Part shown: positions 1,010 through 6,761 of the stretch, piece after piece
Layout: each line of letters begins with the position of its first letter
Numbering within the stretch: the stretch's first letter is position 1
IMG/VR virus record: IMGVR_UViG_2778261223_000006
Coordinates: 1 to 6,761 of that record
DNA from: a virus
Taxonomy: Duplodnaviria; Heunggongvirae; Uroviricota; Caudoviricetes
Direction: 5' to 3' (one strand)
DNA: 6,761 bases
Notes under the pieces: generated by a model
The model's database searches: none
Seen by the model: the letters and a program-made list of their open reading frames with translations, nothing else
What the model was told of the DNA's origin: nothing
Position numbers and translations under genes: made by a program

Positions 1010-2446
1010 TCAGAATCCTCCTTTCTTCTTGGATTGCGGTTCCTCGCGTTCACGGCGGCGCATTTCAGCGGACTGTTGGTCTGTGTCATAAATAGCGCCA
1101 TTTGCCTGAATGCAATACACCGTGCCGGTATTGCCATGACGATTGAGACGAAGGATTAGTTCGGTTTCACCAGGTGGAACACTGTCATCAAAAGCACCTT
1201 CACGATGGATCCCCACCCAATAATCGCAATCCTGTTCAATCTGCCCTGTATCTCGTGAGTCACTTGGTAATGGGCGTTTATTGGTTCTGCTTTCCAGTGC
1301 GCGGTTAAGCTGCGTCAGAAGCACAACAACGCAATCAAGCTCTTTGGCAAGGTTCTTCAGTCCTTTGGTGATCATGCCGTAAGCAAGGTCGTTGCGATCG
1401 GCCTTCTCAGCAGTCATTAGTGTCAGGTAATCGACCAGAATCATGCCAACACATCCTTTTTCTCGCTTGATTCGACGACTTTCGCTGACGATTTGAGCCA
1501 GAGATAATCCCGGCGTGTCGTCGATGTAAAGCAGGTCGATTTCACTCAAGCGATTGGCTGTTTCGATCGCCCTGTTGAAGTCACCATCGTAATCACCCTG
1601 ATAGCCGTCATCAGCGTCATTTGTCGCCGGAAGGTAAAAAATATTCGGGTTAACACCTGACTTCTGTCCTACCAGTTTTTCCAGTATCTGGTCACCGGGC
1701 ATTTCAAGGCTGAACATCAGAGCGGGCTTTTTCTCATGCACTGCGCAGTTGATTGCCATCTGGCTGTATAGCGTCGTTTTCCCCATCTTAGGGCGAGCGC
1801 CAATGACAAACAGAGAGCCTTTCACCAGACCTTTCGGTGACAGCATCCTGTCCAGCGATGGGATCCCTGTGCTCATTCCTCGTTGTTCGCCTGACGGGTC
1901 AAATCGCTTCTCAAGGTCGCTAACCCAGTCTTCCATGACCTCACCAAATGAGCGAAGGCCGCGACGCGATCCGGTTTTTGCATGGTCTGTCAGTTGCGTA
2001 AAAATCGCCTGAATAGCTTCGTACTTCTGCGTCGCAGTCATTCCGTTGCGGGAATAGAGCAATTCCGTCGCTTCAGTCATGCGGTTGATGGCGTAGCGTT
2101 CCATTGCGGTTTCACGAACCTGCATTGCATAGGCAACGATGTTTGCTGCGCTTGGCGTGTTCTTTGCGATCTCAGCGATATAAGCAAAACCGCCAACAGA
2201 CGCCGTTAACGATTTACGCTCCAGTTCATCGAAAAGCGTCAGGCCATCTACTGGCTTTTGCTCCCGGTGCATTCTGGTTATTTCTTCGAAAAGGATTTTG
2301 TGTGGTCGGCTGTAAAATGAATCAGGCTTCAGCATCGCCAGAACTTTCTGGACGCGCTCACTGCTGTCATCATCCAGAAGCAATCCACCAATCACCGCCT
2401 GCTCTGCCTCGATGCTATGGGGCGGCGCATAAAAATTATCGGTCAT
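1010..2446 (-). CDS. dnaB: Replicative DNA helicase, DnaB family
   Basis: Near-colinear with E. coli DnaB as I recall it: N-terminal PHSIEAEQAVIGGLLLD, FAYIAEIAKNTPSAANIVAYA, Walker A GARPKMGKTT, and LTQLNR...RPLPSDSRDTGQIEQDCD. The track ORF starts at a GTG at 2461; I prefer the ATG at 2446 (MTDNFYAPPHS...), which has SD GAGG about 10 nt upstream. Confidence 0.93.
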   Translation of the reverse strand: MTDNFYAPPHSIEAEQAVIGGLLLDDDSSERVQKVLAMLKPDSFYSRPHKILFEEITRMHREQKPVDGLTLFDELERKSLTASVGGFAYIAEIAKNTPSAANIVAYAMQVRETAMERYAINRMTEATELLYSRNGMTATQKYEAIQAIFTQLTDHAKTGSRRGLRSFGEVMEDWVSDLEKRFDPSGEQRGMSTGIPSLDRMLSPKGLVKGSLFVIGARPKMGKTTLYSQMAINCAVHEKKPALMFSLEMPGDQILEKLVGQKSGVNPNIFYLPATNDADDGYQGDYDGDFNRAIETANRLSEIDLLYIDDTPGLSLAQIVSESRRIKREKGCVGMILVDYLTLMTAEKADRNDLAYGMITKGLKNLAKELDCVVVLLTQLNRALESRTNKRPLPSDSRDTGQIEQDCDYWVGIHREGAFDDSVPPGETELILRLNRHGNTGTVYCIQANGAIYDTDQQSAEMRRREREEPQSKKKGGF

Positions 2447-3326
2447 CGTGTTCACCCTCACGAACTTTCAGGTAGGTATTATCGTTAAGCAGGAAATCAA
2501 ATCCCTTTTTGTGCCAGACGGTTCCGCGTTGATGGTTTGGGCGCTCTTCGAACATCCATCGGCAATTTTCGCCAACGTAGCTCAAATAATTTCTCCAGTC
2601 CTGCATCGTGAACCCATGCCCGTCAAGTTGGCGTGTTATTACTCCGGCTTTGCGCCAGAACGTTCGGATCTGGTTTTTACGCTTGTCATTCAGTGCGCGG
2701 ATTCTTGGCGCTTCAGGAAGGATTTCGTGGTAAGCATCGACAACATCCTGACAGCTGACGGAAGGTTTTTTCTTGTCAGACTTTTTGTCTGCTGTGGCAC
2801 TCTCTAATACGTCAGTATTAGAGATATTATTTATATTATTGTTTATGGACAACCGTTGGACAACCGTTGGACAATCTCCGCTGAGAGCCGCGCCATTACT
2901 GGTGTTTGCGTTGGACAACCGTTGGACAACCGTTGGACAATTTTTTGCCTGAAAATCGTCATATTTAACGATTGTAAACAGGCTAAATTTCTTCCCCATC
3001 GAGCAAATATTAAGCATCCCTTTCGACTCAAAAGTCCGTAATAAGCTCCGAACTTTGTTGTCGGGGATGAATGTTTCTCTGACCAGCGACGGGCGTCCAG
3101 TTATCATCTGACCGCGATCAACAGTTATCGGCCCGATATCCGTATTGACGACAGTAGATTCGTGATTAGCCTTGAGGATTAAGTGAAGCCAAAGATGTAC
3201 TGCCTGAGAGTCCTTATAGAGCCTGCTGTCCATAAACTGGCGGTGTATAGAGACATACCCCATACTGGATGCCTCCTGATGTTGTACAGGGTTATGCCTG
3301 TAATCAGCTAACTTAACGACGCCCAT
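2436..3326 (-). CDS. O: Phage replication initiation protein (lambda O-like origin-binding protein) with the origin embedded in its coding sequence
   Basis: Sits between cII and the helicase as in lambdoid replication modules. Contains internal iterons plus an AT-rich tract (2810-2940), encoding a repeated CPTVVQRLS linker peptide. SD AGGAG 6-7 nt upstream of the ATG at 3326. Sequence family not confirmed from memory. Confidence 0.75.
   Translation of the reverse strand: MGVVKLADYRHNPVQHQEASSMGYVSIHRQFMDSRLYKDSQAVHLWLHLILKANHESTVVNTDIGPITVDRGQMITGRPSLVRETFIPDNKVRSLLRTFESKGMLNICSMGKKFSLFTIVKYDDFQAKNCPTVVQRLSNANTSNGAALSGDCPTVVQRLSINNNINNISNTDVLESATADKKSDKKKPSVSCQDVVDAYHEILPEAPRIRALNDKRKNQIRTFWRKAGVITRQLDGHGFTMQDWRNYLSYVGENCRWMFEERPNHQRGTVWHKKGFDFLLNDNTYLKVREGEHDDR
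2810..2845. other. AT-rich DNA-unwinding region of the replication origin, adjacent to the iterons
   Basis: Sequence tacgtcagtattagagatattatttatattattgtttat is strongly AT-rich within an otherwise balanced coding region. It lies immediately downstream (in gene orientation) of the iterons, as in lambda ori. Confidence 0.6.
2846..2874. repeat. Origin iteron cluster 1: tandem 11-bp direct repeats ccgttggacaa (two full units and one partial)
   Basis: Direct read: tggacaa (2846-2852), ccgttggacaa (2853-2863), ccgttggacaa (2864-2874). Lies inside the O-like gene. Confidence 0.8.
2909..2940. repeat. Origin iteron cluster 2: three tandem copies of (c)cgttggacaa
   Basis: Direct read: cgttggacaa (2909-2918), ccgttggacaa (2919-2929), ccgttggacaa (2930-2940). 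Separated from cluster 1 by a 34-bp spacer. Confidence 0.8.
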
Positions 3327-3508: not shown

Positions 3509-3787
3509 TCAGGCCTCGAAGAATTCGCCGTTCTTCGGGGCTTTTTCTTTTGTCAGCATTCTGGCTACTTTCTTAGCCAGTTCCGCCAACTCCTCGTCTT
3601 CAACACCCCATTCAAGAACAGCAAGAAGCATTCCCATTTTGGGGATGAAGCTGTCTTTCCATCGCGAAATTTGCGATTCATTAATCCCTAACGCGTCGGC
3701 AACCTTTCGCTGACCACGTACAGCAATTCGATTCAGGATGTTGCTTGTAATTGCATTCGCTTTCTTGCGAGTACTTGTAAGTTGCAT
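3509..3787 (-). CDS. cII: Transcriptional activator CII
   Basis: The core SQISRWK...IPK...MLLAVLEWGVEDEE aligns with lambda CII (SQISRWKRDWIPKFSMLLAVLEWGVVDDD). The RBS/start context TTAAGGAAATACTTACATATG is lambda-like. Position directly downstream of cro and nutR. Confidence 0.9.
   Translation of the reverse strand: MQLTSTRKKANAITSNILNRIAVRGQRKVADALGINESQISRWKDSFIPKMGMLLAVLEWGVEDEELAELAKKVARMLTKEKAPKNGEFFEA
3741..3754 (+). promoter_or_regulatory. Candidate CII-binding box (TTGC-N6-TTGC) of a PRE-like promoter reading towards cro/cI, inside the 5' end of cII
   Basis: TTGC ttgtaa TTGC read on the plus strand at 3741-3754, antisense to cII codons about 11-15. Lambda PRE has the same TTGC-N6-TTGC architecture within the cII N-terminal coding region. 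No clear -10 identified. Confidence 0.35.
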
Positions 3788-3844
3788 ATGTAAGTATTTC
3801 CTTAACTAATAAGAAGTTATGCGCATCAACTTATGCGCGTTGTA

Positions 3845-3889
3845 TTCCCGCATTTCGGCGGGAATGAGGACCATGACTGTTAAAGAGCG
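3845..3889 (-). promoter_or_regulatory. nutR site: boxA (complement of 3878-3889, CGCTCTTTAACA) and boxB hairpin (complement of 3845-3863)
   Basis: Minus-strand boxA matches the boxA consensus. The boxB hairpin sequence ucccgccgaaaugcgggaa is identical to the nutL boxB at 5544-5562. Lies between cro and cII as in lambda. Confidence 0.7.
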
Positions 3890-3895
3890 GTGTTA

Positions 3896-4090
3896 CTATT
3901 TGTTTTTCTTGTTGCTTGGGAAAGGACGAACTTCCTCTCCAATCACACTGCCATCAGGCTTTACCGTAACCATAATGTTACGGCCTGCCAGAATGGCCTT
4001 GCTGATAGCGCACTGGATTACACCAAAGTCACTGGCTGCTTTAGCCTGTCCATGGATTTTGGCGTAATCGGCAAGTGTCATTCGAATCAT
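3896..4090 (-). CDS. cro: Cro repressor
   Basis: [64 protein letters not shown] aligns along its length with lambda Cro ([63 protein letters not shown]). The track begins at a GTG at 4096; I prefer the ATG at 4090, which has SD GGAG 7-8 nt upstream. Confidence 0.9.
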
Positions 4091-4119
4091 ATGCACTCTC
4101 CGTTATTAACCATGAACAA

Positions 4120-4148
4120 AGAATACTACAGGTATTCAAAGCAATCAA
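4120..4148 (-). promoter_or_regulatory. PR-like promoter for cro: -35 TTGATT (complement of 4143-4148), 17-bp spacer, -10 TATTCT (complement of 4120-4125)
   Basis: Read on the minus strand. The -10 hexamer is identical to the PL -10. Both hexamers overlap the operator palindromes. Confidence 0.6.
4121..4137. promoter_or_regulatory. Operator OR1-like site, GAATACtacagGTATTC
   Basis: 17-bp site with perfectly symmetric 6-bp arms GAATAC/GTATTC. Overlaps the PR -10. Confidence 0.6.
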
Positions 4149-4162
4149 TACTCAGGGTATTT
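4146..4162. promoter_or_regulatory. Operator OR2-like site, cAATACtcaggGTATTt
   Basis: Symmetric arms AATAC/GTATT. Overlaps the PR -35. Closely related to the OL site at 5432-5448. Confidence 0.55.
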
Positions 4163-4196
4163 TTAGTTTAAGTACCTTAGCTATTAGAATTAAGCT
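4162..4196 (+). promoter_or_regulatory. PRM-like promoter for a leaderless cI transcript: -10 TAGAAT at 4185-4190, poor -35 TTTAGT at 4162-4167
   Basis: TAGAAT ends 6 nt before the cI ATG (4197) and there is no SD upstream of cI, as for lambda PRM/cI. A possible degenerate third operator lies at about 4170-4187. Confidence 0.5.
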
Positions 4197-4913
4197 ATGG
4201 AAAATAAAAAATCACTGACGACAGAACAGCTCGAAGACGCTAAGCGGCTTAAGGCTTTGTATGAGTCAAAAAAGAAAGAATTGGGAATAACCCAATACTC
4301 AATCGCTGATGAACTGGGTATCACCCAAGGAGCGGTAGGGCATTATCTTAATGGCAGAAACGCGCTAAACGTTGAGGTCGCATCTGGTTTTGCACGTTTG
4401 TTGCAAGTCTCAATTGCTGATTTTAGCCAGTCAATTGCTGCCAAGGTTGCAGAACAGGCAGAAAGCCTTAAGAGCGATGCCAACGTAAGGTATGCAGGGG
4501 AATACAGAGCAGGAAAGAGGTATCCGGTGTTAAGCAGTATCCAGGCTGGCTCGTGGTGTGAAGCATGCGAACCATACACCATTAAAGACATAGATGTTTG
4601 GCTTGAGTCTGACGCGCATATTCAAGGTAATGCGTTCTGGCTTAAAGTGGAAGGTGATTCAATGACGGCACCGGTTGGGTTAAGCATTCCAGAGGGAACA
4701 TTCGTTCTTTTCGATACCGGAAGGGAGGCGATCAACGGCAGCTTGGTCATAGCAAAACTTTCTGACTCTAACGAAGCAACATTCAAGAAGCTGATAATCG
4801 ACGGCGGAAATAAATACCTCAAGGGACTTAACCCTGCATGGCCTCTCGTGCCAATCAATGGAAACTGCAAGATTATAGGCGTTGCAATTGAGACAAAACT
4901 AAGGCTGGTTTGA
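4197..4913 (+). CDS. cI: CI repressor (HTH DNA-binding domain plus S24 LexA-like autopeptidase domain)
   Basis: N-terminus LTTEQLEDAKRLKALYESKKKELG matches lambda CI ([24 protein letters not shown]), with a divergent recognition helix. Ala-Gly cleavage site (IQAGSW), catalytic Ser (VEGDSMTAP) and Lys (ATFKKLI) motifs are present. Confidence 0.95.
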   Translation: MENKKSLTTEQLEDAKRLKALYESKKKELGITQYSIADELGITQGAVGHYLNGRNALNVEVASGFARLLQVSIADFSQSIAAKVAEQAESLKSDANVRYAGEYRAGKRYPVLSSIQAGSWCEACEPYTIKDIDVWLESDAHIQGNAFWLKVEGDSMTAPVGLSIPEGTFVLFDTGREAINGSLVIAKLSDSNEATFKKLIIDGGNKYLKGLNPAWPLVPINGNCKIIGVAIETKLRLV

Positions 4914-4932
4914 TCACGCAAGGGGGACGCTT

Positions 4933-5301
4933 ATGGTTGGAACCGCTATAGCAAGCTTTTTTGGGATGTTGGCAATCTCAACAATTTACGGCTTAGCGCA
5001 TGCTTTTATTGCGAAATCTCTATCAGAAAAAATAAGCCAGGCTTGGGCGCATAGATCAGCTCGTTTCATGATTCTAGTGGTCATAGCAATACAAGGGATA
5101 TCTGCATTTATCCTCTATGGATCAAGCTTATACCTGTTGTATCAAGGCGCGACATTTACGCCTTACACCAGTGATTACGGAACTCTATACGATGGTAGTG
5201 AAGACATCTCTATGGCTTGGATCGTCTTTGGTTTATCTGTGGCCGTGTCTGTTGTAGCAGACATCATTAAGGTAATTCTCGTCTTAACCTTCGCTGACTA
5301 A
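4933..5301 (+). CDS. Integral membrane protein (122 aa, about 3 TM helices) co-transcribed with cI; candidate lysogen-expressed exclusion/defence protein in the rex position
   Basis: ATG lies 19 nt after the cI stop, with SD AAGGGGGA between. Three long hydrophobic segments (residues about 5-27, 45-70, 95-120). Occupies the slot between cI and OL/PL that holds rexA/rexB in lambda. No family recognised. Confidence 0.75.
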   Translation: MVGTAIASFFGMLAISTIYGLAHAFIAKSLSEKISQAWAHRSARFMILVVIAIQGISAFILYGSSLYLLYQGATFTPYTSDYGTLYDGSEDISMAWIVFGLSVAVSVVADIIKVILVLTFAD

Positions 5302-5431
5302 CCCATAATCCCGGCAGCAATAGCTATCGGGATCCACTTCACATATCCCGCATAAAAAGCACTGAACAAGCAGATACCGAAAAAATAAATATCCTTTGTA
5401 TTCATCTGTTTATCATTATTTCATCAAAAAT

Positions 5432-5473
5432 AAATACCCTGGGTATTTACACAATAAAATACCTACAGTATTC
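5432..5473. promoter_or_regulatory. OL operators: AAATACCCtGGGTATTT (5432-5448, perfect 8-bp arms) and AAATACCtacagTATTC (5457-5473)
   Basis: Palindromes read directly. Same ATAC...GTAT half-site family as the OR sites. They overlap the PL hexamers. Confidence 0.65.
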
Positions 5474-5474
5474 T
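5446..5474 (+). promoter_or_regulatory. PL-like promoter: -35 TTTACA (5446-5451), 17-bp spacer, -10 TATTCT (5469-5474)
   Basis: Hexamers with canonical spacing, overlapped by the OL palindromes. About 190 nt upstream of the N-like gene. Confidence 0.6.
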
Positions 5475-5520: not shown

Positions 5521-5562
5521 GCTCTTTAACATTGATGGGATTGTCCCGCCGAAATGCGGGAA
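5521..5562 (+). promoter_or_regulatory. nutL site: boxA GCTCTTTAACA (5521-5531) and boxB hairpin tcccgccgaaatgcgggaa (5544-5562)
   Basis: boxA matches the boxA consensus. boxB is identical to the inferred nutR boxB. boxA-boxB spacing is 12 nt here and 14 nt at nutR. Confidence 0.7.
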
Positions 5563-5668: not shown

Positions 5669-5941
5669 ATGACAGTAGTCATTACATATCTGGCTGACGA
5701 TAACGCCAGAAATCGCCGCAGAGCACGCAGACAGGCTCAACGTGAACAGGCAATGCAAGAACAGCGACTGGCGCGAAAAATTGCGCTAAAGCTCTCTGGT
5801 TGCGTCAGAGCAGATAAAGCAGCATCACTCGGAAGCCTTCGCTGCAAGAAGGCAGATGAATGCAGTGGAAGTATTTGCCTGCCAAACGTAGCTATTTACG
5901 CGGCAGGCTACCGGAAATCAAAACAACTGACGGCGAGATGA
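5669..5941 (+). CDS. N: N-like transcription antitermination protein (90 aa) with N-terminal arginine-rich motif
   Basis: First gene downstream of PL/nutL. Arginine-rich motif DNARNRRRARRQAQREQ near the N-terminus, as in lambdoid N proteins that bind boxB. SD GGAGG 4 nt upstream of the ATG. Confidence 0.65.
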   Translation: MTVVITYLADDNARNRRRARRQAQREQAMQEQRLARKIALKLSGCVRADKAASLGSLRCKKADECSGSICLPNVAIYAAGYRKSKQLTAR

Positions 5942-5957
5942 TAAATTAATTTGCTAA

Positions 5958-6539
5958 TTACTTGTTTTTGCCGTGCTTATCCTGAGCGATAAGTTCATCC
6001 ATAAGACTGTCTTTCTTCCCAGCAAACCTAATGTAGCACTCATTTCTATAGCGTTCTGGGATAACAAAACGGTCGATTTCAGGATATCCAGTAGCAGAAG
6101 GTATCCGAATAAGAAGCCCTTTTTCGAGCAATGAGATTGCTTCAGGGCTTCCCTTTTCCGTTTGTAGCTGGTTATTAGCGACTACAGCGAGTGCCAAATA
6201 CGCTCTTTCTCCAAGAGTTAACGAATCAAACAAATCTTGCACGTATTTCTCTTCTTTAGATTTGCGCTTCTGAGCAGCGAATACCTCAATTCTTTCAGTC
6301 ACAGCGTGATAAGCGGAATTAACAACGCCGTTAAGCACATAGCTAACGCAAAACAACAGGATGTAATACATCCAGTAATGAGGAAGGATTTCTGGATTAT
6401 GCAGGTTTATCCATTCTTTTACGCTTACCGGCATAACAATAATCAATATGATCAGGATGATTAGCATATGAATCAACTGTTTAAGTGTCATTCCTTGCAG
6501 GAAAAAATGCATTAGTTCCTGCCACCATGAGTTGTTCAT
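5958..6539 (-). CDS. sieB: Superinfection exclusion protein B-like membrane protein (193 aa)
   Basis: Convergent with N, as sieB is in lambda/P22. N-terminal hydrophobic TM segments (LIHMLIILIILIIVMPV, YWMYYILLFCVSYVL). The sequence matches my recollection of lambdoid SieB but this is unverified. Confidence 0.65.
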   Translation of the reverse strand: MNNSWWQELMHFFLQGMTLKQLIHMLIILIILIIVMPVSVKEWINLHNPEILPHYWMYYILLFCVSYVLNGVVNSAYHAVTERIEVFAAQKRKSKEEKYVQDLFDSLTLGERAYLALAVVANNQLQTEKGSPEAISLLEKGLLIRIPSATGYPEIDRFVIPERYRNECYIRFAGKKDSLMDELIAQDKHGKNK

Positions 6540-6761
6540 CGGCGTTTCTCTTTTGCTCTCTGTAGGGGTGAATAGAGTTTATCCGATTTCTCGCTTGAGC
6601 TGGCCCCCTGAAATACCAGACAGTAGATGTATCTTAAAATAAGAGATAGGCTTGGATATATGTCTAACACTAGTTCTAATTTTGGTAAGCGTAAACTGAC
6701 CGCCGTATGTAGCCATCAGACGAGAATTGGTAACTTAGACGCCCATCTGATATAGACGGAC

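Follow-up and report, generated by a model that had tools for sequence, protein, structure and literature searches.

The question raised by this locus is whether the short gap between two divergent regulatory genes holds a complete lambda-type genetic switch and, if it does, to which immunity type that switch belongs. The DNA analyzed, 6,761 bases in length and called the window below, is the early control region of a lambdoid prophage, in which positions 4097 to 4196 make up the cro-cI intergenic region. An earlier note, made from the sequence alone, had read these positions as a complete OR/PR/PRM switch with operators unlike those of lambda. Every sequence feature on which that reading rested was found where the note had placed it, and the arrangement matches the annotation of coliphage HK620; in our judgment, the region is very probably the OR of a lambdoid prophage with HK620 immunity type and a lambda-like switch mechanism. 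The feature is already known: GenBank has listed the operators and early promoters of the HK620-type immunity region since 2001, and the detection of this region from raw sequence, correct as it was, is a rediscovery with little discovery value. What the locus does offer is a worked example of a shift in repressor specificity on the lambda scaffold.

Operators and early promoters of the window

As in other lambdoid switches, cI and cro diverge around a control region of roughly 100 bp (the gap between the two genes measures 106 bp), and the first gene of the PR transcript encodes a small Cro repressor (Table 1). The open reading frame list placed the start of cro at GTG 4096, a candidate that was rejected, as the conserved GGAG would then be only 1 nt away. 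On the basis of that conserved GGAG and of the HK620 and mEpX2 annotations, cro is taken to start at ATG 4090; its Shine-Dalgarno (SD) sequence reads CTCC on the opposite strand, and at least 95% of the 47 unique intergenic regions compared below retain it.

Table 1. Genes, operators and promoters of the window, in order of position
Feature	Position	Strand	Description
DnaB-type helicase	1010-2461	-	gene
O-type initiator	2436-3326	-	gene
cII	3509-3787	-	gene
PRE	3764-3803	+	cII-activated, directed towards cI; from the HK620 pRE and cII-binding-site annotations (offset +799)
cro	3896-4090	-	64 aa, lambda-type Cro; coordinates equal the HK620 cro annotation
cro Shine-Dalgarno sequence	4098-4101	-	GGAG, 7 nt before ATG 4090
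PR	4120-4148	-	-35 TTGATT (4148-4143), 17-nt spacer, -10 TATTCT (4125-4120)
OR1	4121-4137		GAATACTACAGGTATTC; GAATAC-TACAG-GTATTC; overlaps PR -10; exact motif match; equals HK620 OR1
OR2	4146-4162		CAATACTCAGGGTATTT; CAATAC-TCAGG-GTATTT; exact motif match; equals HK620 OR2
PRM (putative)	4162-4190	+	weak -35 TTTAGT (4162-4167), 17-nt spacer, -10 TAGAAT (4185-4190)
OR3	4170-4186		AAGTACCTTAGCTATTA; AAGTAC-CTTAG-CTATTA; degenerate, 2 mismatches; equals HK620 OR3
cI	4197-4913	+	238 aa; HTH N-terminal domain and S24 self-cleaving C-terminal domain
Small membrane protein ORF	4933-5301	+	122 aa, hydrophobic segments, hkaS type
Candidate third OL site	5387-5403		AAATATCCTTTGTATTC; 1 mismatch; 45 bp centre-to-centre from OL2
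OL2	5432-5448		AAATACCCTGGGTATTT; exact motif match; equals HK620 OL2
PL	5446-5474	+	TTTACA, 17-nt spacer, TATTCT; found by promoter scan; within HK620-annotated pL
OL1	5457-5473		AAATACCTACAGTATTC; exact motif match; equals HK620 OL1
N antiterminator	5669-5941	+	first gene of the PL operon; Pfam N_peptide, 1.1e-15; matches the HK620 N annotation
SieB-family superinfection exclusion gene	5958-6539	-	right of N; Pfam PF14163, 3.8e-24

Both regulators are recognizably of lambda type. CI combines a helix-turn-helix domain (Pfam HTH_3, 8e-10) with a LexA-like S24 domain (Peptidase_S24, 5e-24) that carries the Ala-Gly, Ser and Lys of lambdoid repressors; it is 43% identical to lambda CI, with an ungapped alignment across the N-terminal domain, and its nearest solved structure is lambda CI (PDB 3bdn, 2.9e-52). 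For Cro (Pfam PF09048, 3.6e-26), identity to the lambda protein amounts to 63%, and the best PDB match is lambda Cro (1cop, 4.7e-19). The self-cleavage motifs QAG, GDSMTAP and FKKL of CI are conserved with respect to lambda; we take these to correspond to Ala111-Gly112, Ser149 and Lys192 of lambda CI, respectively.

Over PR and PRM, the intergenic region holds three tandem 17-bp pseudo-palindromes with arms AATAC-N5-GTATT, the third of which is degenerate. OR1 is a perfect 6+6 inverted repeat. OR2 overlaps the PR -35 element and adjoins that of PRM, with its center at -43 from the A of the cI ATG. Once PR is read on the minus strand, the overlap of OR1 and OR2 with its -10 and -35 elements, as described in the earlier note, is plainly visible; the arm formula given there, (G/A)AATAC/GTATT(C/T), fits OR1 and is too narrow for OR2, whose left arm begins with a C. 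OR3, an addition to the two sites named in that note, lies within the PRM spacer, its final two bases being the first two of the PRM -10 hexamer, in the same register relative to the -10 as OR3 of lambda. With two arm mismatches, the OR3 of the window is the most degenerate in its family, and its occupancy is uncertain.

A sigma-70 promoter scan of the window listed neither PR nor PRM. PR matches the consensus at 8 of 12 positions, which is below the threshold of the scanner, and we call it on the basis of the HK620 annotation (pR, corresponding to window positions 4113 to 4148, within which it falls), its parallel with PL and its conserved register. That parallel is close: in both promoters, the -35 element begins in the last bases of the O2 site, and the -10 element, TATTCT, is located in the promoter-proximal arm of O1.

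As in lambdoid switches generally, the operator sequence recurs at OL, over PL and upstream of N. The window contains four exact matches to AATAC-N5-GTATT, compared with 0.01 expected from 200 dinucleotide-preserving shuffles of its 6,761 bases, a count that excludes chance, and all four are located in OR or OL. They form two pairs, the first between cro and cI and the second upstream of N (motif cores at 5433 to 5447 and 5458 to 5472), each with a spacing of 25 bp. A control motif with the wrong spacing, ATAC-N7-GTAT, was not enriched in the window and did not occur in OR or OL. The region is AT rich, and short palindromes are frequent in such DNA, so that one might ask whether these sites are chance or structural features of intergenic DNA without a regulatory role; with the excess over shuffled sequence, the equal spacing at two promoters and the conservation of the arms in at least 95% of the 47 relatives, next to variable adjacent bases, we give that explanation practically no weight and treat the palindromes as operators.

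For the third site at OL, our analysis and the HK620 record diverge. The record places OL3 at window positions 5410 to 5426 (TTATCATTATTTCATCA), a site that we rejected as a match to the motif, with 6 of its 10 arm positions mismatched, and it annotates 5383 to 5413, a stretch that takes in our candidate at 5387 to 5403, as a terminator (tIMM); a terminator scan found no plus-strand terminator at 5383 to 5426. The same 45-bp offset from OL2 is seen for a third site in four diverged relatives (L036, L048, L113 and L009), while in other relatives the third OL site is 21 or 29 to 30 bp from OL2. Given this shared offset and its single mismatch, the site at 5387 to 5403 may be a better candidate for the OL3 of HK620-type phages than the annotated one.

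PRM and the start of the cI message

Upstream of the cI ATG at position 4197, a GGAG-like SD sequence is absent. The ATG is preceded by TAAGCT and, before that, by the hexamer TAGAAT, which bears out the earlier description of a TAGAAT 6 nt ahead of cI without an SD sequence. This hexamer and the ATG align with TAGATT-TAACGT-ATG of lambda, in which PRM transcription initiates with the A of the AUG. Our placement of PRM is based on this alignment and on the conserved register of its elements. The -35 element, TTTAGT, agrees with the consensus at only 3 of 6 positions; a weak promoter, passed over by the scanner, is what would be expected if PRM depends on an activator.

Whether cI is indeed leaderless is the point on which an alternative deserves the most attention. 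The operators could be real and yet the maintenance transcript could start farther upstream, or cI could be served by a PRE-type transcript only, with translation proceeding by another route. The start of the cI transcript is deduced here from geometry, the -35 element is poor and unlisted by the scanner, and HK620 has a PRE annotated some 390 nt upstream, which would entail a long-leader cI mRNA at some stage. Against this, a -10-like hexamer (TAGAAT, TACAAT, TAATAT or TACTAT) is fixed 6 nt (37 regions) or 7 nt (10 regions) before the ATG in all 47 diverged relatives, and the intervening 6 to 7 nt are not conserved and are too near the ATG to accommodate an SD sequence. The alignment with the lambda arrangement points the same way, as does OR2, which in each of the 47 regions is centered between -42 and -44, counted from the A of the ATG, the same place from which CI stimulates PRM in lambda. 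We therefore regard a start other than the leaderless one as unlikely, if not negligibly so, and retain a leaderless PRM transcript as the preferred reading.

Within the HK620-annotated cII site and pRE, the window has the repeat TTGC-N6-TTGT (3765 to 3778). A second repeat, TTGC-N6-TTGC (3741 to 3754), is the one annotated as the cII-binding repeat in mEpX2; the two records thus differ on the cII site, and both candidate repeats are inside the start of cII. While lysogeny is being established, PRE is expected to yield another cI transcript, one that has a leader of about 390 nt. Such a long-leader mRNA would not contradict a leaderless PRM transcript, as a long leader would count against the latter in the lysogen only.

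By homology with lambda, the order of site occupancy and its consequences can be proposed as follows. In a lysogen, cooperative binding of CI dimers to the paired sites OR1/OR2 and OL1/OL2 would turn off PR (and with it the minus-strand genes cro, cII, O and P) and PL (and with it N). From OR2, centered at -43, CI would also activate the weak PRM, from which transcription would start either at the A of the cI AUG or 1 nt upstream of it, yielding a leaderless mRNA. OR3, between the PRM hexamers, would be the site at which Cro or excess CI shuts PRM off. Finally, SOS-activated RecA would provoke the self-cleavage of CI at the conserved Ala-Gly by means of the conserved Ser and Lys, leading to prophage induction.

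Recognition helices and the family that shares the operator

The earlier note had stated that the CI N terminus is lambda-like with a different recognition helix, and the ungapped alignment agrees: segment QYSIADELGITQGAVG of the window CI aligns without gaps to QESVADKMGMGQSGVG of lambda. It had also claimed a non-lambda operator, which is what we found. The half-site, (A/G)AATAC(C/T), shares positions 2, 5 and 6 with the lambda half-site TATCACC and differs from it at positions 1, 3 and 4. From lambda to the window, residue 2 of the recognition helix changes in both proteins (Ser45 to Gly in CI; Ser28 to Cys in Cro), and operator base pair 4 changes from C:G to T:A, with base pair 3 changed as well. 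Alongside base pairs 2, 5 and 6, the residues by which lambda reads them, or to which a published Cro code assigns them, are kept: Gln44 and Asn55 of CI and the Gln, Ala and Lys at helix positions H1, H3 and H6 of Cro.

An "evolutionary code" for the Cro proteins of lambdoid phages was reportedly put forward by Hall, Lefevre and Cordes in 2005 and taken up by Hall et al. in 2011. As summarized in PMC6649833, Gln at H1 goes with A+2, Ala at H3 with A+5 and Lys at H6 with C+6. The window Cro helix (QCAISK) and half-site (NAATAC) satisfy all three of the pairings given there. As summarized there, the code is silent on base pairs 3 and 4, those that separate the window operator from lambda's. In lambda, residues 1 and 2 of the recognition helix (Gln44 and Ser45 of CI, Gln27 and Ser28 of Cro) contact base pairs 2 and 4 (PMC5222340). 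Compared with these contacts, the window retains the Gln together with base pair 2 and has replaced both the Ser and base pair 4. The parallel change in the two helices and at base pair 4 fits the idea, voiced in the earlier note, of specificity divergence on a conserved scaffold, and it supports the view that the specificity of this switch would differ from that of lambda by a half-site change paired with helix residue 2 in both proteins.

The operator was also looked for in other genomes, the first check that the earlier note had proposed, and it turned out to be widespread. A scan with the operator-pair pattern returned at least 120 loci in IMG/VR and 29 in a one-genome-per-species set. In at least 34 viral loci, the helix-turn-helix segments of HK620 CI and Cro are unchanged, and the proteins of those examined are essentially identical; about 65 or more further loci encode CI (51 to 88% identical) and Cro (46 to 85% identical) proteins that have diverged from those of the window. 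Genera in which the operator pair and the CI-type helix occur together in one locus include Pectobacterium, Providencia, Kluyvera, Photorhabdus and Pantoea and likewise Phytobacter, Siccibacter, Lelliottia and Enterobacter. For some 40 of the at least 149 operator-pair loci, no CI-type helix was found in the DNA examined, some of these being partial contigs. Others among these, such as loci in metagenome-assembled genomes of Bacillota, Muribaculaceae and Phycisphaerales and some in Pseudomonas, were set aside as probable chance matches or members of other families.

From the matches listed, 47 distinct cro-cI intergenic regions were taken, which, apart from five near-identical copies, are 57 to 72% identical to that of the window. 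Conservation in this set is confined to particular columns: the CTCC of cro, the arms of OR1 (at least 95% of the regions) and OR2, the right arm of OR3 with the TA..AT hexamer, and the ATG, with spacers and flanks variable. The OR3 right arm reads GTATT, followed by TA, in the relatives. All 47 regions contain the three-site chain, with center-to-center spacings of 25/24 bp in 22 of them (including the window), 24/23 in 16 and 24/24 in 9, and two or three further sites are always present 3' of cI, at OL.

The recognition helices are likewise constant. Among 48 unique CI N-terminal domains, Q33, Q44, G45, V47, G48, H49, Y50, N52, G53 and R54 are invariant, as are Q26, A28, S30 and K31 among 37 unique Cro proteins, and helix 2 and the remainder of both proteins vary across the family. 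The ATAC/GTAT half-site is not peculiar to the phage in the window but is common to a wide CI/Cro family in the Enterobacterales. In part, helix and operator have been conserved together because the modules as a whole share a common descent, and not through independent events.

Conservation of both helices also bears on a further question, namely, whether the palindromes are operators shared by CI and Cro or sites for one regulator only or for another protein altogether. CI and Cro do differ at helix position H2 (Gly and Cys, respectively) and at later helix positions. Nonetheless, both keep Gln at position 1, both have lost the Ser that lambda has at position 2, a loss that parallels the altered base pair 4, and neither helix varies within the family in which the operator is kept; no other DNA-binding gene consistently adjoins the sites, and shared sites are the paradigm in lambda and HK620. 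Binding by a single regulator or by a different protein is thus very improbable in our estimation, and we continue to treat the sites as putative common targets of CI and Cro.

At the margins of the family, six loci (L008, L032, L098, L111, L004 and L074) have the operator pair beside very distant CI-like proteins, with 31 to 34% identity in the N-terminal domain, that nonetheless carry TQGAVGHWLNG, a hint that helix and half-site may be paired well outside the lambda-like CI family. In four Pseudomonas loci (L130, L149, L150 and L152), the operator pair is present and a CI-type helix was not found in the DNA examined.

The constancy of the recognition elements in this family raises the matter of how its members relate in immunity. 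Across at least 10 genera of Enterobacterales, AATAC-N5-GTATT, the CI helix (T/S)QG(A/G)VGHYLNGR and the Cro helix Q(C/T)AISK have stayed the same, while CI N-terminal domains have drifted to about 58 to 88% identity and Cro to about 46 to 85%. Escherichia phage Fostie, with 68% identity in the CI N-terminal domain, is one of the diverged members. We tentatively speculate, with distinctly less than even confidence, that these phages are either heteroimmune through determinants outside the helix and half-site or members of a single cross-immune group. If they are heteroimmune, candidate determinants would be the bases at the operator center that the N-terminal arm reads, the site spacing (24/23 versus 25/24) and the cooperativity surfaces; if they are cross-immune, the family would represent an unusually broad immunity group. 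The 47 OR regions, 48 CI N-terminal domains and 37 Cro proteins, all with one half-site, could provide material for studies of the specificity code.

Comparison with HK620 and lambda

The immunity region of coliphage HK620 was reportedly described by Clark, Inwood, Cloutier and Dhillon in 2001 (J Mol Biol 311:657). The GenBank record of this phage (AF335538) annotates OR1, OR2, OR3, pR, OL2, OL1, pL, cro and cI, and these features map exactly on the sites of the window, with an offset of +799 at OR and +801 at OL. Positions 3800 to 5000 are 99.0 to 99.6% identical to HK620, mEpX2, HK630, HK140, vB_EcoP-611R6, phi296, phi367 and two Stx2c phages. For HK620 itself, DNA identity is 99.0% over 1,201 bp, the OR stretch aligns with zero base differences, and the proteins are 99.6% (CI) and 100% (Cro) identical, which assigns the window to the HK620 immunity type; when mEpX2 is included, the identity of CI ranges from 99.6 to 100%. 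The cro-OR-cI block is present in 146 of 5,426 complete Escherichia coli genomes, always in the chromosome. In the searchable literature, we found only passing mentions of operator and immunity experiments on HK620 and mEpX2 and no experiments that address DNA binding by CI or Cro, or map the 5' end of cI, in HK620-type phages.

Outside the immunity block, the window is a mosaic, and no single phage record spans more than 75% of it. Where the window has the SieB-like gene, HK620 has hkaQ and hkaP; the match to HK140 extends to position 6595. The Aeromonas phage AP1 record (MT713136, 254 kb) contains, some 830 bases short of its end, 230 bases that are 99.6% identical to positions 3801 to 4030; this stretch of E. 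coli lambdoid sequence looks like contamination or an assembly artifact of that record.

Two other elements of the early region could be placed with the help of the HK620 annotation. First, two identical 18-nt hairpins (TCCCGCCGAAATGCGGGA), one for each early transcript, are located at 3846 to 3863 (minus strand) and 5544 to 5561 (plus strand); they fall within the annotated nutR and nutL regions, and presumably they serve the N protein of the window as boxB elements. Second, the O-type replication gene contains, at 2835 to 2952, 11-bp direct repeats (GTTGGACAACC) in two groups of three, separated by 66 bp. These coincide with the annotated rep_origin and are presumably origin iterons.

The analysis suggests two changes to the HK620 record. 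The record has no PRM annotation, and a pRM with a probable leaderless cI start would be one; a different OL3 would be the other. Apart from the record, a third small addition is that the half-site and both recognition helices are common to a broad family in the Enterobacterales.

With lambda, the window shares the gene order, the divergent promoters and the three 17-bp operators. Operator centers are at -68, -43 and -19 from the cI ATG, compared with -66, -42 and -19 in lambda, the OR1-OR2 and OR2-OR3 intervals each being 1 bp wider in the window; 16 of the relatives have the lambda geometry exactly, from which the window thus departs by 1 to 2 bp. In both phages, the -10 element is fused to OR3 and stands 6 nt before the cI ATG. 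In the place of rexA/rexB of lambda, directly 3' of cI, the window has the hkaS-type small membrane protein gene, for which no significant Pfam family was found and which could be an exclusion or defense gene, expressed from the prophage and cotranscribed with cI. The immunity type is not that of lambda, which is defined by half-site TATCACCGC and helix QSGVGALFN: the window CI, at 43% identity, has the helix QGAVGHYLN. Set side by side, the CI helices read QGAVGHYLNGRN in the window and QSGVGALFNGIN in lambda, and the Cro helices read QCAISKAIL and QSAINKAIH, respectively. In the shift from lambda, then, residue 2 of the helix in CI and Cro and base pairs 3 and 4 of the operator have changed, whereas the other geometry of the switch has remained fixed.
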